A DNA stretch of 32,000 nt from an uncultured Lentisphaeraceae bacterium (GCA_964579865.1 CAZOIS010000031.1:5535-37534); one strand, 5' to 3'. Shown: positions 8,084 through 32,000, numbered from the stretch's first letter. Made by a program: numbers and translations. Notes: generated by a model not told the origin, from the sequence alone.

Positions 8084-8989
8084 TCAGTTGAAGAAAGGCG
8101 AATGGATGAGCTCGTAGAGCCCGCGGCAGATGCTGTTGTACATGAGGTCGACGACAAAAAAGAAGATGAGCGGCGTGAAGTCGAACCCCATGCCGGCCGA
8201 ACCGCGCCGCGCGAAGCGCCCGAGCAGGAGCTCCACGCCCTCGCTGCAGATGAGGGCGATGCCATGCGACTGCAGGACCGCCGCGCCGAGGTTCGCGATG
8301 ATCAGGATGAAGAGCCCGCGGGTCATGAACATCAGGCCGTCCGCCAGCGAGAGCGCGGCCAGCCAGCCCGTTTTCAGGCACTGGGCATAGAGCGGGCCCT
8401 CCAGGAACGGCGAGGCCAAGACCGGCTTGGCCGCTTCCAGGGGTTGGCCGAGGACGCTGAGCGTGCCGGTGCGGGAAAGGGCGAGGGCCATGGCGGCATG
8501 CAGCGCGACCAGCACGACCGGCTGCGCGAGCAGCGGCAACCGCGAGAAGGGGCGCGTGAAAAAGGTCAGCGCTTCCGACGCGCGGGAGACGCGGAACGGC
8601 GGGGTGATCAGCCGCACCAGCAGGGAAAGCGTCCAGAGCCTGAGAAGGAAAAGGGCAACATGCAGGACGCTGAAGATCAGCAGGGGCGTGATCCGCTCCC
8701 CGACGGCGTCCGGCGAGAACTGGAAAGTGGAGCCGATGCGGATGGCCCAGGAGACGTTGAGGCGGTAGAAAAGGATGGTCTTGAAAAGCGTGATGAAAAG
8801 GATCACCACGAGCGCGGCGGCCTGTTCCGGCAGAAACAGGACCGGGCGCAGGAACGCGAGGACCGAGTCGGTGAATTTGACCGTGCCCGAGAGGAAGGGG
8901 TTGAAATAGAACTCTTTCTCGGGGGCCGACCAGAGCCGGATCCAGAAAAGCAGCAGAAGAAAGTTGAAGGCGTAAATCAGATAATCCAT
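8084..8989 (-). CDS. yggT: YggT family membrane protein (long form)
   Basis: 301 aa from ATG 8989: MDYLIYAFNFLLLLFWIRLWS.... It is polytopic and has the YggT-like C-terminus LTPLIFFFVVDLMYNSI. It sits in the conserved yggT-yggU arrangement. The 8990-9394 extension of the ORF is Arg/Pro-rich and non-protein-like. Confidence 0.7.
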   Translation of the reverse strand: MDYLIYAFNFLLLLFWIRLWSAPEKEFYFNPFLSGTVKFTDSVLAFLRPVLFLPEQAAALVVILFITLFKTILFYRLNVSWAIRIGSTFQFSPDAVGERITPLLIFSVLHVALFLLRLWTLSLLVRLITPPFRVSRASEALTFFTRPFSRLPLLAQPVVLVALHAAMALALSRTGTLSVLGQPLEAAKPVLASPFLEGPLYAQCLKTGWLAALSLADGLMFMTRGLFILIIANLGAAVLQSHGIALICSEGVELLLGRFARRGSAGMGFDFTPLIFFFVVDLMYNSICRGLYELIHSPFFN

Positions 8990-11818: not shown

Positions 11819-12325
11819 ATGTGGCAGCGAGTGCGGAAAAGCTTGATCCGGGCTTTGGAGAATGTGCTGATAGTGCTGGTCGTGGGGTTGACGCTGACGG
11901 TGCTGTGGGGCGTCTTCACCCGCTTTTGCCTTGGGAAGCAGGCGGAGTATACGGACGAGCTGGCGCGTGTGCTACTGGTCTGGATCTCGATGATCGGCGC
12001 GGCCTTGGCGTTCGGGGCGAAGGCCCATCTCGGCGTGGACTATTTTGTGGCCAAACTGCATCCCGAGGCGCGTAAGGCGCTCAGCGTTGTCGTGCAGCTG
12101 GTGGTGTTGTCTTTGGCGACGGTTGTGTTCGTGGCCGGCGGATGGGCGTTGGCCATGGGGCAGATGGGCCAGCAGTTGCCGACCTTGCCGCTCTCGCGAG
12201 GCATGGTTTACCTCTCCATCCCGCTCGGGGGGCTGCTCATGATCCTGTTCGCCATCGAGAACGTGGCCGAGATCATCCGCACGCCGGCCAGCCAATTGGG
12301 GGCGCAGACGAAGTCGGAGGGTTGA
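11819..12325 (+). CDS. TRAP transporter small permease (DctQ-like), orphan
   Basis: 168 aa. The sequence LENVLIVLVVGLTLTVLWGVFTRFCLGKQAEYTDELARVLLVWISMIGAALAFGAKAHLGVDYFV is the typical DctQ pattern. No DctM or DctP follows; the next gene is convergent. Confidence 0.75.
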   Translation: MWQRVRKSLIRALENVLIVLVVGLTLTVLWGVFTRFCLGKQAEYTDELARVLLVWISMIGAALAFGAKAHLGVDYFVAKLHPEARKALSVVVQLVVLSLATVVFVAGGWALAMGQMGQQLPTLPLSRGMVYLSIPLGGLLMILFAIENVAEIIRTPASQLGAQTKSEG

Positions 12326-14869: not shown

Positions 14870-14906
14870 TTGACGGCGCGGCCATCATTTGGTTATTATG
14901 CCAAAT
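14870..14906 (+). promoter_or_regulatory. Candidate sigma70-type promoter with overlapping palindrome (possible ArsR operator)
   Basis: TTGACG (14870-14875), an 18-nt spacer, then TATTAT (14894-14899). The inverted repeat ATTTGG (14887-14892) / CCAAAT (14901-14906) straddles the -10 box, and a nested GTTATT/AATAAC pair is also present. The site lies about 25 nt upstream of arsR ATG 14929. Confidence 0.4.
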
Positions 14907-14928
14907 AACAAAACGAAGGCGGTGCGTC

Positions 14929-15231
14929 ATGACGAAAGCGGAGACGGCGATGCTGGCGGCGAAAACGAAGGTGCTGAAGGCTATGGCGCACCCGGCCCGC
15001 CTGTGGATGGTGCAGCAGCTGGAGGGCGGGGAGCGATGCGTCTGCGAGCTGGTGGACGGGCTCGGGTTGGACTTTTCGACGGTCTCGAAGCATCTGCTGG
15101 TGCTGAAGAATGCGGGCGTGGTGGCGGACGACAAGCGCGGCAAGCAGGTGTTCTACTCCCTGAAGGTGCCGTGCGTGCTGAATTTCATGCATTGCGTGGA
15201 GGCGGTGCTGGAGAAGGGAAAAGAGGAATAG
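14929..15231 (+). CDS. arsR: ArsR/SmtB family metalloregulator
   Basis: 100 aa. Winged-HTH sequence: LKAMAHPARLWMVQQLEGGERCVCELVDGLGLDFSTVSKHLLVLKNAGVVADDKRGKQVFYSL. It carries the CVC metalloid-binding motif. Confidence 0.9.
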   Translation: MTKAETAMLAAKTKVLKAMAHPARLWMVQQLEGGERCVCELVDGLGLDFSTVSKHLLVLKNAGVVADDKRGKQVFYSLKVPCVLNFMHCVEAVLEKGKEE

Positions 15232-15330
15232 AGGAATGCTGGAATAGTGGAATGATGGTGAAGACGTCGTTGCTTCGGGATCACGGCCCCCATCACTCCA
15301 ACGTTCCCGTATTCCAAAATTCCAAAGAGG
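15224..15330. repeat. GGAATnnn-octamer hairpin element ('empty' copy)
   Basis: The left arm is tandem octamers GGAATAGA GGAATGCT GGAATAGT GGAATGAT GG. The right arm is CCATCACTCC AACGTTCC CGTATTCC AAAATTCC, its imperfect reverse complement. The loop is about 30 nt (15259-15290). The first unit overlaps the arsR stop codon. Confidence 0.7.
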
Positions 15331-15335
15331 CTCAT

Positions 15336-16634
15336 ATGGACTGGAAAAGCGAGTGGAAGAAAATGGCGTGGATCGTGGCAGGGTTTCTGGCCTGCTTCTA
15401 TCTTCCTGCGGGTGTTGCGCGGTTTGATCATGCGCTGCTGGAGGCGGCGCACCTGGTGAAGTGGTATGCGCGCGAGCATGTCTTGCTCTGCCTGATACCG
15501 GCGTTTTTCATCGCGGGCGCGATCGGCGTTTTCGTGAGCCAGGCGGCGGTGATGAAGTACCTCGGGCCCAGCGCGAAGAAGGTGCTGGCGTACGGCGTGG
15601 CTGCGGTATCGGGGAGCATTCTGGCGGTCTGCTCCTGCACGATCCTGCCGCTGTTCACTGGGATTTACCGCATGGGCGCCGGGCTGGGGCCGGCGTGCGC
15701 GTTTCTTTACTCGGGGCCGGCGATCAACGTGCTGGCCATGATTATGACGGCGCGGATTCTGGGTCCGGAGCTGGGCGTGGCGCGCGCGGTCGGCGCGGTG
15801 GCGTTCAGCGTGGTGGTCGGCTACGCCATGCACCTGATGTTCCGGCGCGAGGAGGAGGCGAAGATCGCGGCGGCGATCCAGCTGCCGGAGGAAGAGGGCG
15901 GGCGGCCGCTCTGGCAGACGTCGCTGTACTTCGCCTCGATGGTGCTGATCCTGGTGTTCGCGAACTTCGGCAAGCCGCAGAATCCGGAAGGGATCTGGGC
16001 CGCGCTCTACGGCGCGAAGTGGACGCTCACGGCGGTGTTCGCGGCGGGGCTCGGCGTGATGCTGGTGGCGTGGTTCAAGATGCGCCTGTGGAAGGTCGGG
16101 CTCGTGGCGGGTGTGACCGCGCTGACGGCGCTGGGTACGGGCGGCAACGCGTTGGCGGCGTTCACCGTCGGTTCGCTGGGGCTGGCATGGCTGACGGCGA
16201 CGGACACCGGCGAGGGCGGTCAGTGGTTCGAGTCCTCGTGGACGTTCGCGAAACAGATCCTGCCGCTCCTGCTGATCGGCGTGGTGGCGGCGGGCTTTCT
16301 GCTGGGCCGCGTGGGCGAGGAGGGCATGATCCCGTCGGATTGGGTGGCGAAAGCCGTGGGCGGCAACTCGCTGCGGGCGAACTTCCTGGCCTCGTTCGCG
16401 GGCGCGTTCATGTACTTCGCGACGCTGACCGAGGTGCCGATCATCCAGGGGCTGATGGGTTCGGGCATGGGCAAGGGCCCCGCGCTGGCGTTGCTGCTGG
16501 CCGGTCCGGCGCTGAGCCTGCCGAGCATGCTGGTCATCAACAGCGTGCTCGGGCCGAAGAAGACGGCGGCGTTCGTGTCGCTGGTGATCGTGCTCGCGAC
16601 GCTGGCCGGGTTCTTTTTTGGAATGATGGAATAA
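15336..16634 (+). CDS. Permease, PF03773/ArsP-like (UPF0718) family
   Basis: 432 aa from ATG 15336. It is polytopic, and the motif SGSILAVCSCTILPLF contains a CxC cysteine pair inside a TM helix, as in ArsP-type organoarsenical permeases. It lies directly downstream of arsR. Confidence 0.8.
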   Translation: MDWKSEWKKMAWIVAGFLACFYLPAGVARFDHALLEAAHLVKWYAREHVLLCLIPAFFIAGAIGVFVSQAAVMKYLGPSAKKVLAYGVAAVSGSILAVCSCTILPLFTGIYRMGAGLGPACAFLYSGPAINVLAMIMTARILGPELGVARAVGAVAFSVVVGYAMHLMFRREEEAKIAAAIQLPEEEGGRPLWQTSLYFASMVLILVFANFGKPQNPEGIWAALYGAKWTLTAVFAAGLGVMLVAWFKMRLWKVGLVAGVTALTALGTGGNALAAFTVGSLGLAWLTATDTGEGGQWFESSWTFAKQILPLLLIGVVAAGFLLGRVGEEGMIPSDWVAKAVGGNSLRANFLASFAGAFMYFATLTEVPIIQGLMGSGMGKGPALALLLAGPALSLPSMLVINSVLGPKKTAAFVSLVIVLATLAGFFFGMME

Positions 16635-16648
16635 TGGAATGGTGGAAT
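16618..16648. repeat. Left inverted repeat of the GGAAT element carrying the four-helix-bundle gene
   Basis: TTGGAATGATGGAATAATGGAATGGTGGAAT overlaps the permease stop codon (GGA ATG ATG GAA TAA). Apart from one extra 8-nt unit, it is the reverse complement of 17125-17147. Confidence 0.7.
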
Positions 16649-16666
16649 GAGGGGAGGCGGTGCGCG

Positions 16667-17118
16667 ATGGAACACGTTGTAAGGAAAAACATCAATCGAG
16701 GGTACATGAAGCTGATTGTCTGGCAAGACGCCAAGGCGTTGTATGTGATGACCTGTAAGATGTTCCGGGCGTTTCCCTATGAGTTCAAGCGCATGCCTCG
16801 CAACAGATCGCTTCGGTGGATTCTGTGCATCGGAATATTGCCGAGGGATACGCGCGCAGATCCATCAATGAGTATCTCCAATTTCTTAACATCGCATTGG
16901 GATCAATCGGTGAGTCAGTTTCTGGGTTACTCGTGTACCTCGATGCTGGGCAGCTTTCGGAGACCGACTTTGACTTGGCGGATGCTCTCGCATTCAAACT
17001 GGAGAACGGCTTGATCCGTCTCATTGAAAGCCTGCAAATAAAGCGTCATGACGGCGGATGGGACGACAGCTTCGTCGTCCGTGAAAGCAACGCCGCCTAC
17101 GACGCACAACCCTTTTAA
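16667..17118 (+). pseudogene. Four-helix-bundle protein (23S rRNA intervening-sequence protein / Avd-like family), interrupted by a -1 frameshift
   Basis: The N-terminal half is in the frame of ATG 16667 (MEHVVRKNINRGYMKLIVWQDAKALYVMTCKMFRAFPYEFKR). The C-terminal half is in the frame of ORF 16816..17118 (ASQQIASVDSVHRNIAEGYARRSINEYLQFLNIALGSIGESVSGLL...). Together they reproduce the family pattern (WQ...FP... SQ(I/L)..(A/S)..S(I/V)..NIAEGY.R.S..E..QFL.IA.GS). Adding one G between 16795 and 16796 restores a single 150-aa ORF. Confidence 0.8.
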
Positions 17119-17124
17119 CCCAGT

Positions 17125-17147
17125 ATTCCACCATTCCATCATTCCAA
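17125..17147. repeat. Right inverted repeat of the GGAAT element
   Basis: ATTCCACCATTCCATCATTCCAA is the reverse complement of TTGGAATGATGGAATGGTGGAAT. It lies 6 nt after the four-helix-bundle stop and about 20 nt before the next gene. Confidence 0.7.
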
Positions 17148-17168
17148 TTACTACGAAAGGAGTCCGAC

Positions 17169-17399
17169 ATGAGAATTCAAGTTCTGGGCACGGGGTGCCC
17201 GAAGTGCAAGACGCTGATGGCCAACGCGGAGTCGGCGGTCAAGGCTGCGGGGATTGAGGCGACGGTCGAGAAGGTCGACCAGATCGCGGACATCATGAAG
17301 ATGGGCGTGATGATCACGCCCGCCCTGGCGGTGGACGGGGTCGTCAAGAGCGCGGGCAAGGTGCTGAGCCCGGAAGAGATCAAGAAGTTCTTGGTGTAG
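17169..17399 (+). CDS. Small thioredoxin-fold protein (redox-active disulfide protein 2 / MTH895-like)
   Basis: 76 aa: MRIQVLGTGCPKCKTLMANAE...MKMGVMITPALAVDGVVKSAGKVLSPEEIKKFL. It has a CPKC active site and a cis-Pro TPAL. Shine-Dalgarno GAAAGGAG. Such proteins commonly partner PF03773 permeases. Confidence 0.85.
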   Translation: MRIQVLGTGCPKCKTLMANAESAVKAAGIEATVEKVDQIADIMKMGVMITPALAVDGVVKSAGKVLSPEEIKKFLV

Positions 17400-17465
17400 G
17401 AGTCTCTCGCCAAGGCGCAAAGATCGCCAAGTGTCTGGATTCATGGAAACGAAAGAGAGGTGGGG

Positions 17466-17843
17466 ATGCGCGAACAGAATGCGTGTGCGTGCGGGGCGGC
17501 CCCGAAACTGGTTTTCGCGTGCTCGGGCGCGGCGGACGTGGGGGCGGTGGCGGACCAGGCGGCGCGGAAGCTGACGCGGGACGGGGCGGGCAAGATGTTC
17601 TGCCTCGCGGGCATCGGCGGGCGCGTGTCGGGGATCATGGCCACGACAGCGGCGGCGTCGAAGATTCTGGCGATTGACGGTTGCCCGCTGAACTGCGTGA
17701 AACTGGGGCTGGAACAGGCGGGCTTCGCCGGGTTCGAGCACTTGCAGCTAGCCGACCTCGGCATGGAGAAGGGCAAGACGCCGGTGACGTCTGAAGCGGT
17801 CGAGAAGGCCGCTGCGGCGGGCGCGGCGAAACTGGCCTGTTAA
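17466..17843 (+). CDS. Putative zinc-binding protein, DGC domain
   Basis: 125 aa. It has conserved cysteines (CACG, FACSG, FCLAG) and the name-giving motif ILAIDGCPLNC. Confidence 0.75.
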   Translation: MREQNACACGAAPKLVFACSGAADVGAVADQAARKLTRDGAGKMFCLAGIGGRVSGIMATTAAASKILAIDGCPLNCVKLGLEQAGFAGFEHLQLADLGMEKGKTPVTSEAVEKAAAAGAAKLAC

Positions 17844-17861
17844 AGACCACGGGTTCGCGTA

Positions 17862-18446
17862 ATGGCGTTTAGCGGTCTTCTGGCGCAGGGGTGTTCCTGC
17901 GGGCATGTCGGATTTCGCGAGGTGTTGCCTGTGCTGGCGGCGCTCGCGGTGATCCTGGGGTATTCGTTTGCGGGCGACCTGTTCCGCAAGATAATGAAAA
18001 AGGCGGGCAAGATGAATGTGAAGAACATCGCGATTATCGGGGCAGTCGTCGTCGCGGCGGCGGCCATTGTGTTGCTGAAGCAAGGGAAGAAGGCGGAGCC
18101 GGCTGGGGCGGCGGCGCCGGCGGGCGTGGGGGATGCTCAATCCAAGGCGCTGCCGCGACTGGTGGATCTGGGCGCGGGGAAGTGCATCCCGTGCAAAGCG
18201 ATGAAGCCGATCCTTGACGAGCTCAAGACGACGTGCGCGGAGACCTTCAAGACGGAGTTCATCGACGTGTGGGAGAATCCGGAAGCCGGGAAGCAGTACG
18301 GGATCAACCTCATCCCCACGCAGATCTTCTACGGGGCCGACGGCAAGGAGCTGTTCCGCCACGAGGGGTTCTTCTCCAAGGAGGACATCCTCGGCAAATG
18401 GAAAGAGCTCGGGGTGGGGGTGGCTGAGAAAAACGTTCAACGCTGA
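17862..18446 (+). CDS. Membrane-anchored thioredoxin-family protein (TlpA/DsbE-like)
   Basis: The thioredoxin domain has active site GKCIPCK and cis-Pro LIPTQIFY, and is preceded by the TM helix NIAIIGAVVVAAAAIVLL. The longest ATG start (17862) adds a GCSCGH motif and a second hydrophobic segment, and that stretch is coding-like (G/C-rich third positions). Alternative starts are at 17994 and 18012. Confidence 0.75.
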   Translation: MAFSGLLAQGCSCGHVGFREVLPVLAALAVILGYSFAGDLFRKIMKKAGKMNVKNIAIIGAVVVAAAAIVLLKQGKKAEPAGAAAPAGVGDAQSKALPRLVDLGAGKCIPCKAMKPILDELKTTCAETFKTEFIDVWENPEAGKQYGINLIPTQIFYGADGKELFRHEGFFSKEDILGKWKELGVGVAEKNVQR

Positions 18447-18460
18447 AGGAAGGGGGACAG

Positions 18461-19162
18461 GTGATCAACGAACTGTTTTCCAGTCTGACGCGGGCGGTGG
18501 AGGGCACGCCCGCGGTCGCGATGGCGGCGGCGGTGGTGTGGGGGATTTTGAGCGTTGTGCTCAGCCCCTGCCACTTGGCGAGCATCCCGCTGATCGTGGG
18601 GTTCATCGACCAGCAGGGGCGGGTGAGCACCCGTCGGGCGTTCACGATCGCGCTGCTGTTCTCGCTGGGCATCCTGATCACCATCGGCGTGATCGGGGCG
18701 GTGACGGCGGCGGCGGGCCGGATGATGGGCGACGTGGGCCGCTGGGGCAATTATGGTGTGGCCGTGATTTTCTTCGCCGTGGGGCTTTACCTGCTCGGCG
18801 TGATCAATCTGCCGTTGCCGAACGCGGCGCAGCCGGGCATCAAGAGCAAGGGCCTGCTGGCGGCGTTCATTCTGGGGCTGGTCTTCGGCGTGGCGCTCGG
18901 TCCCTGCACTTTCGCGTACATGGCCCCGATGCTGGGCGTGACCTTCCGGCTGGCCTCGACCCATCTTGCCTACGGCATCCTGTTGCTGGTGCTCTACGGC
19001 GTGGGGCACTGCGGGGTGATCGTCCTGGCGGGGACGTTCACGGAGGTGGTTCAGCATTATCTGGACTGGAACGAGCGTTCCCAGGGCGCGCTGATCCTGA
19101 AGAAGGTCTGCGGCGCGCTGGTCCTGTTGGGCGGGCTGTGGCTGCTCTATACGGCGCAGTAA
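18461..19162 (+). CDS. ccdA: Cytochrome c biogenesis/thiol-disulfide electron transporter CcdA (DsbD family)
   Basis: 233 aa with a GTG start after AAGGAAGGGGGA. It has six hydrophobic helices and the two family cysteines, in SPCHLASIPLIVGF and LGPCTFAYMAPML. Confidence 0.85.
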   Translation: MINELFSSLTRAVEGTPAVAMAAAVVWGILSVVLSPCHLASIPLIVGFIDQQGRVSTRRAFTIALLFSLGILITIGVIGAVTAAAGRMMGDVGRWGNYGVAVIFFAVGLYLLGVINLPLPNAAQPGIKSKGLLAAFILGLVFGVALGPCTFAYMAPMLGVTFRLASTHLAYGILLLVLYGVGHCGVIVLAGTFTEVVQHYLDWNERSQGALILKKVCGALVLLGGLWLLYTAQ

Positions 19163-19175
19163 GGATTATGAATGA

Positions 19176-19806
19176 GTGTCACTCAGCCCTGATGCGTCGC
19201 TCGTCGCGCTCGAACGGTTGCAAAAACTACCCGACGGGCTGCTGCTGTATCGCCTCAAGAAACGCTGGCGCGACGGCACGGACGGCGTTGTCTTCGAACC
19301 GTTCGATTTCTTGGAGTGTCTGGCCGCGCTAGAGCCCGCGTCGCGCTTCAACATGATCCGCTACAGCGGCGTTCTCGCGCCTGCCGCGTCGTGGCGCGCC
19401 CGTCTCGCCCCCTGCGGTGAGGTAACGGAAGCCGAAACTCAAAACGAAACCGCCTCAGAACGTTCGGGACCCCCGCCAGACGCGCCCTATCCCCCGGACA
19501 TGCAGGCGATGCGGACATCGGCCTTGCCGACACTGCACCCGTTTCTGCGGGGACGCAGCCATCCACGGCCTCCTGTCCCGTACTGACATCATCAGGTCCG
19601 GCCGGTGGCGCGGATTGTCCCCAACCTGCCGTAATTATAAAACAACATTCCAGGCGGTATGACGGTACGACTGGGCTGAACTCTTGAAGCGATTGTTCTC
19701 TGTCGATGCGGTTCTCCGAGGTTTCTCCGTGCAGGCGCGTTCGCACCCACACGTCCAACAGCTTAACATTGTCGTCCTGAAAACGTCGCCATCCTACGTC
19801 TTCTGA
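19176..19806 (+). pseudogene. IS91-family (rolling-circle, Y2) transposase remnant, 5'-truncated and internally decayed
   Basis: The sequence LERLQKLPDGLLLYRLKKRWRDGTDGVVFEPFDFLECLAALEPASRFNMIRYSGVLAPAASWRARLAP matches the conserved C-terminal third of IS91-type transposases. A second fragment in another frame (YDWAELLKRLFSVD, about 19663-19705) matches the WAELL.RVF..D segment. No N-terminal zinc-finger or HUH part is present. The remnant begins 14 nt after the ccdA stop. Confidence 0.75.
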
Positions 19807-19955
19807 CACCCGCCGTCAACGCCAGGCGTCAAAAATCGGTCGCTGGACCGCCCCGTGCCTCTTCAGCCCCGTCCTTTACTTGACAGAAACCACGTTATCC
19901 GCCATTACCGTATCCTGACGCGTCCTCGAAAATTCAGCTTATACGTCGTATCCGC
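19709..19955. repeat. Direct repeat copy 1 (DR1), about 247 bp
   Basis: It aligns with 23359-23605 at a constant offset of 3650-3651 nt. By eye the copies are about three-quarters to four-fifths identical. Perfect blocks include GTTTCTCCGTGCAGG, ACAGCTTAACATT, AAAACGTCGCCATCCTACGTCTT, GTCAACGCC, TACTTGACA, TTACCGTAT and CAGCTTATACGTC. It overlaps the 3' end of the IS91 remnant. Confidence 0.85.
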
Positions 19956-19975
19956 CTCTATTTTTCCTCACAATC

Positions 19976-21007
19976 TCATTTCTTTGTCATATAAGCTTTT
20001 AGTCCAGAGCATTCCACCAAGCGACCAAGTGTCTTTGGCGTAAACACTTTCCCCTGCGTGGCAAAGAGTAATTTCTTCATGTCCTCCCGCCTGACACCAA
20101 ATCCCCGTCCGGCAATACAGGCGATGACCTCAAATTTCTGATCACCCTGCGGCATTCCATCTACACTCAACGAATGTAGATGCTGTATCCGTGTCACCTT
20201 GTCCCTGGCTGTACCGTCATCCTCGGTCAGCTTTGCCTCAATGACAATCTTTGGATTATACTCGCTGGGGATTATAAAGTCAGGTGCTTGATCGAAACCG
20301 GGAAAACGTTCCGCTCGCTTGGTCTTGCGAAAACTGACACCTGACTTGAGAAGGACCTCCTCGATCGCATTTTCTAAGCCATCGCCAATCCGCTCGCTGA
20401 CTGAATCTCGGTGCCCAGCGAACGGTCGCCCCAAAAAACGCTCATATAGCAACATTGCGTAAGGTGCGCCCATTGCCGCCATGTTACGTAGTGCCGCAAG
20501 CCCACCCATGGTATCCGCCTTGTGAAGCCGATGCAATTGATCGCTCGCGACAACTGGACACCCTTTCGTCAAGAGGTCGCACGCTGTGTCAACCAGCGCC
20601 TCTATACGTCTATGCATCTCTGGGGTTGGCTTAAGCGGTTCAAGAGGGTTAATACGGATCTTCCGATCCAGTGCCCTAGCAACCCCCTGGTTTAGCTCGG
20701 AACCGTACCGTTGTGAAGCAAGGTAAGCCCATTCTGGAGGCGTAAAACCCAGCATCGAACGGAGAACAATCAAAGCAATGGGCGTCTCTAGAACCGTTCT
20801 AAGCACTTCTGAACCCGCCAGAGTAGAAAAACCGCTTGTCGCTTTCTTGAGCGCCTCATATCCCGCCTCAAACAATGGGTAATCAATAAAACCCTCGCCT
20901 TTCGGCAGCACGAGAAACTCGGAAACAAGACTTGATACGACGGCTGAAACGAAAGGTTCCGGCGTCGCCTCGATTTCTGAGAAATTGACTTCAAAAGGAT
21001 ATTTCAT
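19976..21007 (-). CDS. Candidate type II restriction endonuclease (PD-ExK fold), uncharacterised family
   Basis: 343 aa from ATG 21007, overlapping the methylase stop by 17 nt. The C-terminal core LENAIEEVLLKSGVSFRK...FPGFDQAPDFIIPSEYNPKIVIEAKLTEDDGTARDKV fits E...PD...(E)xK. G+C is lower than in the flanks. Confidence 0.6.
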   Translation of the reverse strand: MKYPFEVNFSEIEATPEPFVSAVVSSLVSEFLVLPKGEGFIDYPLFEAGYEALKKATSGFSTLAGSEVLRTVLETPIALIVLRSMLGFTPPEWAYLASQRYGSELNQGVARALDRKIRINPLEPLKPTPEMHRRIEALVDTACDLLTKGCPVVASDQLHRLHKADTMGGLAALRNMAAMGAPYAMLLYERFLGRPFAGHRDSVSERIGDGLENAIEEVLLKSGVSFRKTKRAERFPGFDQAPDFIIPSEYNPKIVIEAKLTEDDGTARDKVTRIQHLHSLSVDGMPQGDQKFEVIACIAGRGFGVRREDMKKLLFATQGKVFTPKTLGRLVECSGLKAYMTKK

Positions 21008-23201
21008 CTTCAAGTTCCTCGCGCACACTCCATGCGCCTTCTGGTTTCCATTGTTGTCTGAGCCCCGCATCGTCAAAGGTCGCCCCAAGTTCCGTCAAAA
21101 CGGCATCCACCCCGCCGAAAGTCTTGAGCCATTTCTCGACCTTATCCAGCCGCTCACCAATGGGCAGTGCCGCGTCCCACTCTTTTCTCAGGAACCATAC
21201 TGCCAGCCGAATCAGATGGCCATAACAGACGCATCGAATGTCGCCCTGCGTGACGGTTAGACCACCCGCTGACAAATCCTCAACATCCCTCTGCAAGATA
21301 CCCGCCACCCCCGGCGCATTTTCCACAATCCATCTGCGCGGCACGTGGCCAGTCGAACGACACACGAAAACGGTGTCTACGATCGAGGACTCTGTGCCGT
21401 TGATATGGATGGACGCGCCCATTTCCGCCGGACACGGCAGCGATGCTGAGCAGACCAGTTTGGAGTCGAGCATGGCAACAGCTAGAGGAACATAAGCGTC
21501 AAGTTGGTTGTGGTGATACGTGAAGGCCAGCGGTCGCCCAGACTCTAACCGCTGCGCCGCCAAACACAGTGTTCTTGACATGCCTTCGGCGAAATGATCA
21601 AGCCCGCGCCCCATATTGGCATTGCCAGTCAATTCGTTCTGGTGGCGAGTACTCGGTTTCCTAAATTCGGGAATTGAACCGCTCAACAGTTTGCGCAGCC
21701 AGACATAGCAGAAGTCCATGAGTTCAGCATACTGGACGTTGCCGAAATAAGGTGGGTCTGTGAACACGGCATCGAAGCGATCCCCTCTGAGCGCAAGGGC
21801 GGAGGAGTCATCACAAAGAAGCCGGATGTTTCGAATATCAGTGCCTCTTTGTGTGTCGCGCCGGGGGCCAATCCATTCCCCGGCAATTGGGACTTCGGTT
21901 TTACGCGAGCCTTCGTGACGGATCTCGAACGGACGCACGCAGTAGCGTTTCGCTTTGGCGAACTTCTCTACGATGTTCAGCCAACCGCCGCTGCCAACAG
22001 GAACCCCGCGCGTACCTGCGATGCCGAAGAGATTCGACTCGCACTGAATCAGTCCAACCGGGAAGCCGTGTACCGAGAAGACGTCGAGAGACTTAAGCGC
22101 CATCGTGTCGTAGCGGCAGAGCATATTCTGATAACGCAGTAGGTCGGATAGATTCGTTGCGAGCGCCTCACGGATGCGCTGATCTTCAATCTGATCAATC
22201 CAGCGGCAACTCAGCTCTAAACCAAGCAACTGGCGGGCGTTGAATAAGTCGCGATAGTGATGATACCCCCACCGGTGCAGCCTCTCCGTCTCGTCACCAG
22301 TTGGAATTGCATCATCGGGAATAAACGTCGGTTGCAGCGCCGCTAACCGCGCAGTTGCCTCTTCGAACCGCGCCAAGTCGTCGGCATCGGGTTTCTTGAA
22401 AAGCCGGCCTTTTTGTGAAGTCTCCATTTTCGCGCAATTATTGCACGAGCACTCCATCGCAAACAGTCGGTGAGTCGGAGTCGACTCGCTCGGATAGAGT
22501 ACCGGCTTGTCGCAGTAGCTGCAAGTTGCCTTGTTGCGTGCTGCGGTATGATGCAGCGGCAAGGTTTTCCCGCAAATGGGGCAGGCACCCGGATTCTTTC
22601 GGTCTTCCGCCTCAAACAGCTCGCCGCAATGTCCGCATACAAAAACATTGGCGGGGTGACGCACATTCTCCGAGATCAGAAAATTGGGAAACAAATCGGT
22701 GTCTCGGCCACATGCACCGCACTTTGCTGTCTTGACCCAAAGGAAGTATTTTACATGTGCGTCGAGACTGCCACAACGTACACACCTCGTACGATAAAGA
22801 TGACCAATCTCCCTTTCTAAGTGCGACCTTAACTGATCAGCCGCCTTCAGATAAGCGTCAACATCGAGGTTCTGTAATTCCTGACGGACGATCCACCATG
22901 CCATCGGGTTGATATCAGTTCCTGTCACGGAACACCCGACACGGTTCGCCTCCATCATCGTCGTGCCACCACCCATAAACGGGTCGAAAACCCGGACACC
23001 TGGCAGGTCGTTTGCCTGATAGAATGTCTCAAAAACTGGTTTGTCGGTGAACTCGGACAGGATTAATGAACGAAAAAGAGTGCCCGGCCGCCGCGCAAAC
23101 CATTTATGAACGGCAATGAGCGGACGATAGTTTTGTTGGATCTGCTTCTCACGCAAAGCAAGAGAGGCCACAAAGGGCACATTGAAATGGCGTTCTATCA
23201 T
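20991..23201 (-). CDS. DNA methyltransferase, COG1743/DUF1156 type with zinc ribbons (N6-adenine or N4-cytosine)
   Basis: 736 aa from ATG 23201. The DUF1156 N-terminus is FVASLALREKQIQQNYRPLIAVHKWFARRPG. The AdoMet motif I is VFDPFMGGGTTMMEANRVG. Three CxxC...CxxC ribbons are present (CVRCG..CGACG, CGHCG..CPICG, CSYC..CNNC). The catalytic motif IV is DAVFTDPPYFGNVQY. The ORF-track extension 23202-23459 reads through DR2 and was rejected. Confidence 0.8.
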   Translation of the reverse strand: MIERHFNVPFVASLALREKQIQQNYRPLIAVHKWFARRPGTLFRSLILSEFTDKPVFETFYQANDLPGVRVFDPFMGGGTTMMEANRVGCSVTGTDINPMAWWIVRQELQNLDVDAYLKAADQLRSHLEREIGHLYRTRCVRCGSLDAHVKYFLWVKTAKCGACGRDTDLFPNFLISENVRHPANVFVCGHCGELFEAEDRKNPGACPICGKTLPLHHTAARNKATCSYCDKPVLYPSESTPTHRLFAMECSCNNCAKMETSQKGRLFKKPDADDLARFEEATARLAALQPTFIPDDAIPTGDETERLHRWGYHHYRDLFNARQLLGLELSCRWIDQIEDQRIREALATNLSDLLRYQNMLCRYDTMALKSLDVFSVHGFPVGLIQCESNLFGIAGTRGVPVGSGGWLNIVEKFAKAKRYCVRPFEIRHEGSRKTEVPIAGEWIGPRRDTQRGTDIRNIRLLCDDSSALALRGDRFDAVFTDPPYFGNVQYAELMDFCYVWLRKLLSGSIPEFRKPSTRHQNELTGNANMGRGLDHFAEGMSRTLCLAAQRLESGRPLAFTYHHNQLDAYVPLAVAMLDSKLVCSASLPCPAEMGASIHINGTESSIVDTVFVCRSTGHVPRRWIVENAPGVAGILQRDVEDLSAGGLTVTQGDIRCVCYGHLIRLAVWFLRKEWDAALPIGERLDKVEKWLKTFGGVDAVLTELGATFDDAGLRQQWKPEGAWSVREELEDEISF

Positions 23202-23358
23202 TCTATCTATCCTAAATATTCCTAGTATTCCCGTTTTCTTTTCTCGCGCAGGACGTCGTCGGCGCGCTTGATGCGGTCGCGCAGACGGATCGCCTCGGAG
23301 TCTGGCGCGGCCACGGGCTGGTCCCTGTCGCGCATGACGGTCCGCCCCGCGTACACAT

Positions 23359-23605
23359 CCGTTTCTCCTTAGTTTCTCCGTGCAGGTGTATACGAGCCAA
23401 CACGTCCGACAGCTTAACATTACCGTTCTAAAACGTCGCCATCCTACGTCTTTTAACACGCGTCGTCAACGCCGGGAGTCAAAAAATCGATCGCCGGACC
23501 GCCTCGCGCACCTTCAGCACCATCCTCTACTTGACATAGGCCCTGTTTTTCGCGCTTACCGTATTCCGCCCAGGCCGGAAAATGCAGCTTATACGTCCTA
23601 TCCGC
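23359..23605. repeat. Direct repeat copy 2 (DR2), about 247 bp
   Basis: See DR1. It has the same orientation and lies upstream of the methylase start, so DR1 and DR2 bracket the R-M pair. Confidence 0.85.
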
Positions 23606-23812
23606 TGCCTTCCTGTCCGCTCTTTTATCTGGTTGTTGTCAGGTGCAACTTGGCTTAGTAGCCCATGGTTTTCTCGGAGTTCGCAATCGTTCGGGACACC
23701 CTTGCGAAGCAGGTTGCCTCAGATGGTCTTTGAAGCAGGGCGCGTATATCCTGCTGAAGAGGTCGTGGTACTTAGGCGGACGGCGGATGTCATCCTTTGC
23801 CGATTCGCGCGT

Positions 23813-23841
23813 TTGACATCGGCGTCAACACGTGATAACTT
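23813..23841 (+). promoter_or_regulatory. Candidate sigma70-type promoter for the methyltransferase / arsR-hgcAB string
   Basis: TTGACA (23813-23818), a 17-nt spacer, then TAACTT (23836-23841). It lies about 45 nt upstream of ATG 23885. Confidence 0.3.
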
Positions 23842-23884
23842 CGTCACATAACGAAATGTAATCGTTTGGACGGAGTTTGAGAAA

Positions 23885-24745
23885 ATGATCGGTTGCTCTC
23901 AGAAATGTGATGATCATACCCGGTTTCTGATGACGGTTCACGCGCAGCATCCCGGCCTGACGGAGCGTAGCATCGGGGCGGCGCGAACGGACGACGGATT
24001 GACCAGCTATGAGGTGTTCTGCCGCTTCGTCGATCCGCAGCCGGGAATGACGGTTGTGGATCTTGCCTGCGGCAACGGTCCCCTGTGCGGGACGCTTGCG
24101 GAACGGGTCGGACCGAACGGAAGGGTCATCGGCGTGGATCTGAGCAGGGATGAGCTCCGGCTGGCTGGCGAGCGTTTGCGTTCTTATCCGAATGTTCGCT
24201 TGTTGAATGAGGCGGCGTCGACACTCTCGCTTCCTGACGCGGCGGCGGATCTCGTGGTTTGCCATATGGCGTTTATGCTCTTCACGCCGCTGGTGCCGAC
24301 GGTGACCGAGATCGGACGCATTCTGAAAAGCGGCGGGACTTTTGCCGCTGTGATCCCCACGCTTCGGAAGCCGACGGATCTGTTCCGCGACTGCGCGGGC
24401 GTTCTGCGTGCCGCCCTGCAGGAGGAGTGTCATGAGCTGGGAGCGCTCAGCGGCAACGTGGTCAGGATGAGCAGCATCGGTGATCTTCAGGCGGTCTTTT
24501 CTGATGGCGACTGGGAGTGCGATGGCATCTCAACCGGCGATATTGACGTGTCGATTGTTGCCAGGCCGGATGCGCTCGCGAGGCAAATATCGCCCGCATT
24601 CTATCACTACCAATTGCTTTCGTACGACGCGCAAGGGCGCGTCGTTTCGCAGTGGGACACTCTTTTCACGGAGCATATTGATAGGTCTGGAATGTGTTCA
24701 TTTCATTTTCCGCTTTCGGCCTTTAGCGTCAGAAAGCGCGACTAA
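23885..24745 (+). CDS. Class I SAM-dependent methyltransferase
   Basis: 286 aa. Motif I is VVDLACGNGPLCGTLAERVGPNGRVIGVDLS, and the post-I/II segments are DLVVCHMAFMLF and ILKSGGTFAAVIP. Shine-Dalgarno GGAG. The substrate cannot be inferred. Confidence 0.75.
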   Translation: MIGCSQKCDDHTRFLMTVHAQHPGLTERSIGAARTDDGLTSYEVFCRFVDPQPGMTVVDLACGNGPLCGTLAERVGPNGRVIGVDLSRDELRLAGERLRSYPNVRLLNEAASTLSLPDAAADLVVCHMAFMLFTPLVPTVTEIGRILKSGGTFAAVIPTLRKPTDLFRDCAGVLRAALQEECHELGALSGNVVRMSSIGDLQAVFSDGDWECDGISTGDIDVSIVARPDALARQISPAFYHYQLLSYDAQGRVVSQWDTLFTEHIDRSGMCSFHFPLSAFSVRKRD

Positions 24746-31443: not shown

Positions 31444-32000
31444 CTAAAAATCAAAAGCTGGAAATCGGTTTTTTTGACAAGTATTTGACCGTATGGGTCG
31501 CGCTGTGCATGGTCGCGGGCGTGATGATCGGCAAATTCCTGCCGGGGATACCCGCGTTTCTCGGGCGGTTCGAATACGCGAAGGTCTCAATCCCCATCGC
31601 CGTGCTTATCTGGCTCATGATCTGGCCGATGATGATGAAGGTGGATTTCGCCAGCATCAAGAACGTCGGCAGAAATCCGAAAGGGCTGTATGTCACCTGG
31701 GTGACCAACTGGCTGATCAAACCCTTCACGATGTATGCGATCGCCGCGTTTTTCTTCTTCGTGGTCTTCAGGTCGCTGATTCCGAGGGAACTGGCCCGTG
31801 ACTATCTGGCCGGGGCCATTCTGCTGGGCGCCGCGCCCTGCACCGCGATGGTGTTTGTATGGAGCCATCTGACAAAGGGAAGCCCGGCCTATACTGTGGT
31901 GCAGGTCGCGACCAACGATTTGATCATCCTGCCGGCTTTCGTCCCGATTGTCGCCCTGCTGCTGGGCGTGAGCGGCATCAAGATCCCGTGGGACACGCTC
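31440..32000 (+). CDS. acr3: ACR3-family arsenite efflux transporter (3' end outside window)
   Basis: This gene is not in the ORF track because it is open at the window end. My own translation from GTG 31440, which overlaps the rhodanese stop as GTGA, reads [41 protein letters not shown]...[43 protein letters not shown]...[19 protein letters not shown]. This is the ACR3 signature, including the conserved Cys in GAAPCTAMV. Confidence 0.88.
   Translation, partial: [187 protein letters not shown]

Follow-up and report, generated by a model that had tools for sequence, protein, structure and literature searches.

A probable IS91/ISCR-type capture of a defence-operon fragment between two copies of a ~255-bp element end in an uncultured Lentisphaeraceae bacterium

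Elements of the IS91/ISCR type are best known for capturing antibiotic-resistance genes in Proteobacteria. They encode a Y2 HUH transposase (Pfam Y2_Tnp, usually together with Zn_Tnp_IS91), transpose by rolling circle via a single-stranded circular intermediate, one-ended events included, and mobilize adjacent DNA; their left end, terIS, has a subterminal GC-rich palindrome and a cleavage tetranucleotide. In the ISCR28 sandwich, two sequential oriIS sites capture the DNA in between, which includes armA/sul4 (PMC12772301). In ISCR1, a 232-bp oriIS-containing region follows the transposase gene tnpA and contains the promoter POUT (PMC6218425). In IS801, miniature right-end fragments (229, 360 and 679 nt) with a target-like tetranucleotide at their boundary move by one-ended transposition and account for 26% of the transposition events of this element (Bardaji et al. 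2011, PMC3189936). The IS91 family is described as having neither terminal inverted repeats nor target-site duplications, and its cleavage/target tetranucleotides are CTCG, GTTC, CTTG, GTCC and occasionally GTAC (PMC13181058). Here we analyze a 32,000-nt stretch of DNA deposited under the name of an uncultured Lentisphaeraceae bacterium (GCA_964579865.1 CAZOIS010000031.1:5535-37534; hereafter the window), in which two direct repeats, DR1 and DR2, bracket a DNA methyltransferase gene and a putative nuclease gene beside a remnant of an IS91-type tnpA. We consider it probable that DR1 and DR2 are the non-coding terminal modules of an IS91/ISCR-type element and that they bracket a captured operon fragment in an oriIS-cargo-oriIS sandwich.

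The locus shares its parts with the ISCR sandwiches: an IS91-family tnpA, then an oriIS, the cargo directly beyond it and, past the cargo, another oriIS in direct orientation (PMC12772301). The arrangement, with tnpA and oriIS reading toward a cargo transcribed in the opposite direction, is that of ISCR2 beside glmM' and sul2 on plasmid CP035637, and the terminal ~26 nt of the repeat unit are homologous to the ends of both ISCR1 and ISCR2. Unlike those sandwiches, and unlike the complex class 1 integrons of ISCR1, the host belongs to the Kiritimatiellia and not to the Proteobacteria, the cargo is a fragment of a defence operon instead of a resistance gene, and the second oriIS is carried by a discrete 255-bp mini-element, whose inner end is defined, rather than by a truncated ISCR copy. 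Capture in a two-oriIS sandwich is already known for the IS91/ISCR group, and nothing at this locus contradicts current understanding. What is new is the host group, which lies within the Planctomycetes-Verrucomicrobia-Chlamydiae (PVC) superphylum, the nature of the cargo, and the discrete and abundant unit with its conserved outward promoter, ribosome-binding site and ATG. The same capture mechanism, recognizable by its oriIS signature and two-oriIS sandwich, appears to be active in Kiritimatiellia and other PVC bacteria, and here to have moved a defence-operon fragment into an arsenic-resistance island.

The repeat family and its link to IS91-type transposase genes

DR1 (19711-19955, + strand; nhmmer E=4e-78, edges from the L030 and family alignments) and DR2 (23350-23605, + strand; E=3.5e-77) are same-strand copies of one sequence, 77% identical in the family alignment, within the 75-80% originally estimated. 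A repeat search resolved them into four collinear direct-repeat blocks (~19706-19955 and ~23357-23605) at a spacing of 3650-3651 nt and 78-93% identity, and a global MAFFT alignment covered ~250 nt with three 1-nt indels, similarity stopping outside. A 22-nt block common to both occurs at these two sites only, against a chance expectation of zero at three or fewer mismatches. Three of the four edges first proposed (19709-19955 and 23359-23605) were accurate to a few bases; the fourth was displaced, DR2 starting ~9 nt further left, at 23350. DR2 is a complete solo unit, with sharp ends as in ~20 full copies from unrelated contexts, extending from CGTACACATCCG at its inner, ter-like end to ...CCTATCCGC at its outer, oriIS-like end. 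DR1 is incomplete, its inner ~11 nt (GTACACATCCG) having been deleted along with the 3' end of tnpA. The two are mutual nearest relatives, at 77% identity versus at most 74% to any other copy.

The unit belongs to a dispersed family. A 20-mer scan of metagenome contigs found a third copy (in L001), a BLAST search of plasmids added one on Nitratidesulfovibrio vulgaris plasmid pDsulf-L2-2, where tet(C) and a truncated GNAT gene flank it, and a gapped pattern derived from the invariant blocks matched species-representative genomes at 27 loci, mostly metagenome-assembled genomes (MAGs) of Kiritimatiellia, Lentisphaeraceae, Victivallales or Verrucomicrobia. Pattern matches in Microbacterium (L011) and Rhizobium (L025) were set aside as chance matches that nhmmer does not support, and scans of genome contigs with the exact 22-mer and of viral contigs for the repeat each gave zero matches. 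By pattern scan and nhmmer profile, the loci fetched for copy counts (L001-L036; 30 loci, mostly from PVC-superphylum MAGs) contain ~45 copies, among which solo units are abundant and far outnumber full-length copies of the element. Twenty full copies align end to end, from CGTACACATCCGACCC... at the inner boundary to ...GAAAAYGCAGCTTRTACGTCCTATCC(GC) at the outer, and their flanks turn unrelated at the same two nucleotides. No terminal inverted repeats were found in the unit, whose ends are instead alike in direct orientation (GTACACATCCG and GTACGTCCTATCCG). Around 17 distinct full copies no target-site duplication was seen, and both absences agree with the description of the IS91 family. 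Right flanks start with GC (L002-type, window, L007 and L010 copies), CT (L020 type), GT or CG, with GTAC in L030 only.

Many copies lie at contig ends, as a dispersed repeat would give, and the unit could help to annotate many of the contig breaks and of the "hypothetical" intergenic repeats found in PVC MAGs. Identical copies are present at no fewer than five loci of the Kiritimatiellia MAG AMR_MDS_1298, in a second MAG and on the N. vulgaris plasmid, so that the unit has moved recently and between phyla. One further copy (L006 32-60) carries the inner-end motif (...GTACGTACACATCCGACCC) in place of the oriIS-like terminus, which suggests that the two unit ends can be exchanged or joined, as for ori/ter junctions.

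In five loci (L020, L007, L004, L003 and L008) units form same-orientation arrays with 1.3-5 kb of cargo between them, an arrangement that would also be produced by an integron-like or other site-specific cassette system with ~250-bp recombination sites between its cassettes. Among the open reading frames (ORFs) inspected, however, no recombinase gene was found beside any array. The units greatly exceed attC sites in length and show none of the R''/L''-L'/R' symmetry of such sites, the gene adjacent to the unit, where there is one, is that of a Y2 HUH transposase, and the unit terminus is homologous to the ISCR oriIS. We therefore give a cassette system practically no credence.

The transposase remnant of the window (19176-19710, + strand) matches Pfam Y2_Tnp above the gathering score (E=6.5e-6) and starts 14 nt past the ccdA stop. 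It also matches positions 346-429 of the NCBIfam ISCR clade Ia model (E=1.8e-15), with 56 bits, far under the 925-bit cutoff; the window transposase is only a distant relative of the curated ISCR clades. With ~340 N-terminal codons and the last ~61 codons missing and a frameshift after 19586, it is a fragment only and cannot be functional. The remnant is 74-79% identical to P0002/L030, the homology running up to "WAELLKRLFSVD", and its intact homologues continue ~61 residues further ("...ALQCDRCGGRMRILCAVNPPEAIRKILACLGMPIRAPPIAPALIEWGD..PVYSDAYA*").

What follows the stop codon of these homologues ties the repeat to the transposase. In L030/L031 an intact tnpA 3' end (stop at 755) is followed on the same strand by a complete unit at 773-1032. 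In L035/L036 a near-full-length element, with Zn_Tnp_IS91 and Y2_Tnp domains, one frameshift and a readable VHFHAL (HUH) motif in L035, has the inner end of the unit (CGTACACATC) 20 nt past the stop, and nhmmer homology to the unit resumes ~60 nt past the stop and extends to the contig end. In L013, and twice in L007, "...PVYSDAYA*" is followed by a 20-nt spacer, CGGCACGTTATAGCCCTCGC, and then by the unit. The unit thus lies ~20 nt downstream of an IS91-type tnpA stop in four independent contexts, as the original prediction of a link to IS91-type elements had anticipated, and in intact elements it appears to be the non-coding stretch from the tnpA stop to the element end. The left end (terIS) of the full-length element was not found, L035 1-380 giving no match.

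Alignment with L030 shows a loss of ~210 nt from the window, which took the final ~61 codons of tnpA, the spacer and ~11 nt at the start of the unit. The remnant had been drawn as continuing to 19806. Its Y2_Tnp identity and its start beside ccdA hold, but its coding homology ends at ~19710, and since the unit is non-coding and starts after the stop in intact elements, 19711-19806 is not decayed coding sequence. Similarly, the view of each repeat as a 3' coding end plus an origin-type end was right in that the repeats are oriIS-bearing element ends and wrong in that no 3' coding end is part of them. Two other interpretations of the repeat were considered and discarded. A tblastn search with the remnant, which found no IS91 gene near ~45 other copies, and the ending of "WAELLKRLFSVD" at the repeat first suggested that the repeat is unrelated to IS91; this was ruled out, because intact homologues, which have the C-terminal 61 residues that are missing from the remnant, did detect tnpA ends immediately ahead of units when used as queries. 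The idea, from six-frame translations, that the repeat is a decayed C-terminal coding region of tnpA was rejected on the evidence of the intact C-termini.

The two ends of the unit were compared with those of known elements. The right-end (oriIS) 22-mer of ISCR1 is 5'-GTGGTTTATACTTCCTATACCC-3' (PMC13023784), and the ISCR2 end, taken directly from plasmid CP035637, reads ...GAAAAGGGCGTTTATTCTTCCTATACG. Compared end-anchored, the terminus of DR1 (GCAGCTTATACGTCGTATCCGC; 19934-19955, + strand) matches 14 of 22 positions of the ISCR1 oriIS and 17 of 26 of the ISCR2 end, and that of DR2 (GCAGCTTATACGTCCTATCCGC; 23584-23605, + strand) matches 16 of 22 and 19 of 26; shuffled DR2 ends reached 15 or more matches at any offset in only 5 of 20000 trials. 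The outer end of the unit, which reads ...GAAAAYGCAGCTTRTACGTCCTATCCGC, is homologous to the oriIS of ISCR1 and ISCR2. It lies downstream of tnpA and on the same strand in L030, L035, L013, L007 and the window.

The inner end starts with GTAC, preceded by CTCG in the IS-linked copies, and carries ~35 nt further in a conserved GC-rich stem-loop (GGCGC-GGGT-GCGCC), whose variants, for example GGCGCG-GA-CGCGCC, keep pairing; in DR2 this stem-loop is degenerate. A GC-rich stem-loop is conserved in IS91-family left ends. Taken together, the 255-bp unit may best be read as a miniature element with an ori and a ter-like signal at opposite ends, mobilized in trans. It resembles the IS801 fragments as a short, non-autonomous right (ori) end with a target-like tetranucleotide at its inner boundary, solo copies and similar size (229 nt versus ~255 nt here), presumably likewise mobilized in trans. 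Unlike the IS801 fragments, it lies wholly downstream of the tnpA stop, keeps a stem-loop like that of IS91 left ends, far outnumbers the full-length copies, and has a conserved promoter, ribosome-binding site and ATG.

A different arrangement is seen in L033 (7911-12172), where an IS91-like tnpA remnant ends at 8719 and only the last ~65 nt of the unit, its oriIS end, is present 3.4 kb downstream (12108-12172), with PQQ-repeat and other genes in between. This locus may represent an element with passenger genes between tnpA and oriIS, or a rearrangement.

The operon fragment between the repeats and its probable history

Two intact minus-strand genes lie between the repeats. The first (20991-23201, - strand) encodes a 736-aa DNA methyltransferase of the DUF1156/HmaB-like adenine methylase type, recognized by Pfam (N6_N4_Mtase, 27.6 bits against a cutoff of 26.7; MethyltransfD12, 24.3 bits against 22), by NCBIfam (a partial DUF1156_antiphage match) and by PADLOC (HmaB, E=8e-25; DUF1156_MTase; MTase_II), and is 81% identical in nucleotide sequence to its counterparts in L040/L037. 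The second (19976-21007, - strand) overlaps the methylase stop by 17 nt and encodes a 343-aa putative nuclease with a PD-(D/E)xK-like "PDF...IEAK" motif, in full "PDFIIP...IVIEAK". This protein has no family match in Pfam, NCBIfam or PADLOC. Its homologues number more than 5900, spread across phyla at 65-97% identity, and one carries the name "C15orf41 family"; the best match of its AlphaFold2 model (mean pLDDT 79.7) in the PDB is BstEII (E=3.3e-4, TM 0.33-0.38), followed by other restriction-type nucleases. The close bracketing of both genes by the repeats was described correctly, with 21 nt from the nuclease stop to DR1 and 149 nt from the methylase start (23201) to the inner edge of DR2.

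The two genes had been taken for a simple restriction-modification cassette, an interpretation that does not stand. Between the methylase gene and DR2 lies the 3' stub of a helicase gene (23222-23347, - strand; last ~42 codons; DEAD/Helicase_C/WHD_HRQ1/MZB), cut at the inner end of DR2, and its peptide "...RDRDQPVAAPDSEAIRLRDRIKRADDVLREKRKREY" aligns with the C-terminus of the L037 helicase, "...RDWDQPVTAPEPDTEGIRLREKLNRAADALREKRKREY". In L037 (2251-8032), L040 (2179-8032) and L041 (105-5958) a helicase gene, BrxH-like in PADLOC, precedes the same methylase-nuclease pair with the same 17-nt overlap, so that the pair in the window is the distal part of a three-gene operon, which is widespread and apparently undescribed. 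The intact operons have no units and different surroundings. Window positions 19995-23342 are 81% identical to L040 4668-8013, the homology beginning no more than ~8 nt from the inner end of DR2 and fading ~20 nt before the nuclease stop (19976). The cargo is thus a fragment, about two-thirds, of the three-gene operon, cut at the ter-like end of the unit 42 codons before the helicase stop.

The cargo and the repeats form part of a block (19164-24775) that is absent from a syntenic Kiritimatiellia locus, L046. That contig is collinear with window positions 14887-19163 and 24776-32000 at 83-95% identity, short unaligned stretches (e.g. 16610-17167) excepted, with 17995-19163 and 24776-30536 corresponding to L046 2789-3999 and 4667-10449. 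Its gene order is ArsR-ArsP-thioredoxin-DGC-thioredoxin-CcdA, followed by ArsR-CdhD-like-Fer4-CMD-ArsD-ArsA-...-ArsC, and the gap between CcdA and ArsR, 5.6 kb in the window, is only 667 nt there and holds one unrelated small gene. The block therefore splits two co-directional arsenic-resistance modules that are contiguous elsewhere, as predicted with slightly different limits (19163-24761). Composition sets the inserted DNA apart as well, G+C being 0.53-0.56 for DR1, cargo and DR2 compared with 0.62 upstream and 0.67 downstream, and G+C at third codon positions (GC3) 0.52-0.58 in the methylase and nuclease genes compared with 0.8-0.9 in neighboring genes, in line with the claim of an AT-rich cargo.

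The original prediction had named in advance three findings that would count against delivery by an IS91-like element: a repeat without IS91 links elsewhere, relatives with the same genes at the same site and no repeats, and a composition like that of the surroundings. All three questions were answered in favor of delivery. The unit follows IS91-type tnpA ends in other genomes, the gene pair is absent from the site in L046 and has its homologues elsewhere in repeat-free three-gene operons, and the composition deviates. The claim of delivery is thus supported, with the amendment that the cargo is a truncated operon.

In our preferred interpretation, the sandwich, DR1 is the end of a decayed resident copy of the element, whose tnpA is left only as 19176-19710, and DR2 is a solo copy. 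A solo unit would have come to lie inside the helicase gene of a donor operon, and rolling-circle replication starting at its oriIS would have continued past the ter-like end (degenerate in DR2) and taken with it the helicase stub and the methylase and nuclease genes before terminating just past the nuclease stop. The product would then have been placed beside the oriIS of the resident element.

In a rival explanation, the units are independent insertions, akin to miniature inverted-repeat transposable elements and able to insert beside the IS, and the sandwich was assembled by ordinary recombination without rolling-circle read-through. The methylase-nuclease DNA would then have entered by another route, or by recombination between unit copies on two replicons, and the helicase would have been lost in an IS-adjacent deletion. 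Solo units are numerous and clearly mobile on their own, the sister copies DR1 and DR2 offer 250 nt of homology, and the ~210-nt deletion at the DR1/tnpA junction shows that such rearrangement has occurred here; most genomic IS801 fragments, moreover, have been attributed to reorganizations and not to one-ended transposition (Bardaji et al., PMC3189936). This explanation is harder to reconcile with a cargo breakpoint that falls, within a few bases, on the defined inner end of the unit, and no 5' part of the helicase gene was found beyond DR2. The layout also recurs: in L002 a unit is fused to a truncated GNAT gene that is followed by an intact, co-oriented pyridoxamine 5'-phosphate oxidase (PNPOx) gene, in L007 the order is tnpA end, unit, cargo gene, unit, and in L020 units surround a sul2-like gene, mirroring ISCR2, glmM' and sul2. 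Recombination would, in addition, still need a donor molecule with a unit already at that position. We consider an origin without read-through capture unlikely as a whole, while homologous recombination between units is a serious alternative for the last step of the history.

Several observations weigh against the sandwich interpretation or parts of it. Neither an intact transposase nor a full-length element was recovered among the fetched loci, and the flanks after the oriIS-like end yielded no target tetranucleotide consensus of the GTTC/CTTG type. The sister status of DR1 and DR2 fits an origin within one lineage and would also fit assembly of the sandwich by homologous recombination between units instead of read-through. 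RNAalifold on 14 copies of the unit gave a weak consensus structure with a covariation term of +0.57; with so little covariation, the proposed hairpins rest on direct reading of the sequence, and the register of the leader hairpin shifts between subfamilies of the unit. Finally, the assignment of the second cargo gene as a nuclease depends on its motif and a weak fold match (TM 0.33-0.38). Even so, the sandwich remains the interpretation that we consider probable.

A predicted promoter in the unit and the genes downstream

Capture-prone insertion sequences of the ISEcp1 type have outward promoters. A promoter scan of the window detected a sigma70-like promoter, TTGACG-17-TAGGAT, on the minus strand of both DR1 (19791-19819) and DR2 (23441-23469). 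Across 27 distinct copies of the unit it is conserved as a -35 box TTGAC(G/A), a spacing of 17 and a -10 box that is always TAnnnT, while the spacer and the middle of the -10 box vary (TAGGAT, TATGCT, TATGAT, TACCAT, TATAAT and others). It is followed in the family by a leader of constant length (~99 nt), which ends in GGAGG-N6-ATG at the very edge of the unit and contains a hairpin whose arms differ by subfamily (CAGGTCGG/CCGATCTG, GAGAGG/CCTCTC, CGACA/TGTTG). The promoter is antisense to tnpA in the full element and points out through the ter-like end in a solo unit. Directly upstream of the -35 box in both window units, and overlapping it, is a terminator-like GC hairpin with a T-run (CGGTCCRGCGAYCG ATTTTTT; 19837-19850 and 23488-23501, - strand), which is not kept in all family members and could insulate the promoter from read-in transcription.

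In DR2 the predicted promoter, a ~90-nt leader, GGAG and an ATG at the unit edge face the helicase stub and the methylase and nuclease genes. It probably drives both genes, because the native promoter of the operon, upstream of the helicase in L037/L040, was left behind and is absent from the window. Its DR1 counterpart reads into the tnpA remnant in antisense, and no gene lies downstream. Across the family, a co-oriented gene is present at 26 of 33 distinct inner-end flanks (binomial p=0.0013), tnpA itself accounting for three of the seven exceptions. The genes downstream of units include those for a sulfatase, an alpha-L-fucosidase, a GH42-like protein, 3-keto-disaccharide hydrolases, serine hydrolases and a PLD-helicase, and in L015, L029 and L026 the ATG of the unit itself serves as the gene start codon.

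This conservation raises the question of whether the repeat might be a non-mobile promoter and leader of the regulon type, duplicated locally, with the nearby IS91 remnant a coincidence. Such an upstream region would account for the constant-length leader with its Shine-Dalgarno sequence and ATG and for the position of most units before co-oriented genes for secreted glycan-degrading enzymes. It would not account for identical copies at unrelated loci and beside tet(C) on a Desulfovibrionaceae plasmid, for sharp boundaries at both ends, one of them inside truncated genes, for the linkage to IS91-type tnpA 3' ends in at least four contexts, for the oriIS homology, or for a DR1 promoter that has no gene to serve. 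We judge it very improbable.

Among described systems, the ISCR1 promoter POUT is a parallel, in that the non-coding end of an element provides a sigma70 promoter, here a predicted one, for adjacent captured genes. Unlike POUT, which reads outward across oriIS in the direction of tnpA, the promoter of the unit reads the opposite way, through the ter-like end. A second parallel is provided by "mobile promoters", closely similar promoter-bearing sequences that precede unrelated genes, both inside one genome and in different genomes (Nijveen et al. 2012, PMC3575422). The unit, too, carries a promoter upstream of unrelated genes, and differs in that a vehicle can be proposed for it, a mini-IS91 unit with defined ends. 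An outward promoter conserved in this way may account for the expression of captured genes that lack promoters of their own.

We tentatively raise the possibility, which we do not favor, that the unit is more than debris of an insertion sequence (IS) and constitutes a portable expression cassette of PVC bacteria, a mini-IS91 mobilized in trans. If so, it would supply any DNA past its ter-like end with a promoter, a structured leader, a Shine-Dalgarno sequence and a start codon. Genes for secreted sulfatases, fucosidases and other glycan-degrading enzymes would have been activated or co-regulated with its help time and again by Lentisphaerae, Kiritimatiellia and Verrucomicrobia. It would also have switched on captured defence and resistance genes, and would already have crossed into a Desulfovibrionaceae multiresistance plasmid.

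Resistance-gene loci and the surroundings of the block

Two of the loci place units next to resistance genes. On a contig of the Kiritimatiellae MAG STF1_28 (L020 1-4670), a stretch of 4.7 kb contains four units. The cargo at 280-1382 shares 75% nucleotide identity with sul2 and the downstream glmM fragment of ISCR2-sul2 plasmids, in the same layout, and another encodes a Sir2-like protein. On pDsulf-L2-2 (NZ_CP116247.1; L002 5348-6260), ~100 nt separate a unit identical to those of a Kiritimatiellia MAG from the tet(C) 3' end. The ATG of this unit is in frame with the truncated GNAT gene ("hypothetical protein", MCTGLSTRV...) that precedes the pyridoxamine 5'-phosphate oxidase gene. Further genes on the plasmid are OXA-21, aadA and lnu(F). 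These two loci hint at traffic between environmental PVC bacteria and resistance plasmids.

Beyond DR2, the variable block of the window contains a 280-nt spacer and a SAM-dependent methyltransferase gene (23885-24745, + strand; ArsM/UbiE-like, GC3 0.68) ahead of ArsR. L046 has a C_GCAxxG_C_C gene where the window has this methyltransferase gene, which may be either separate cargo or a gene that varies locally. The nearest homologues of the window CcdA are in Kiritimatiellia MAGs. An Rfam scan of 18500-25000 at E<=1 returned nothing, and no tRNA or tmRNA genes were found in the window. A second difference from L046 lies within the upstream arsenic-resistance module, where a ~560-nt segment of the window (16610-17167) is missing from L046. 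The segment contains a 100-aa ORF (16816-17118) for a four-helix-bundle protein resembling the "23S rRNA intervening-sequence protein", flanked by 28-nt inverted repeats, TTGGAATGATGGAATAATGGAATGGTGG at 16618-16645 and CCAGTATTCCACCATTCCATCATTCCAA at 17120-17147, and looks like a small insertion bounded by terminal inverted repeats.

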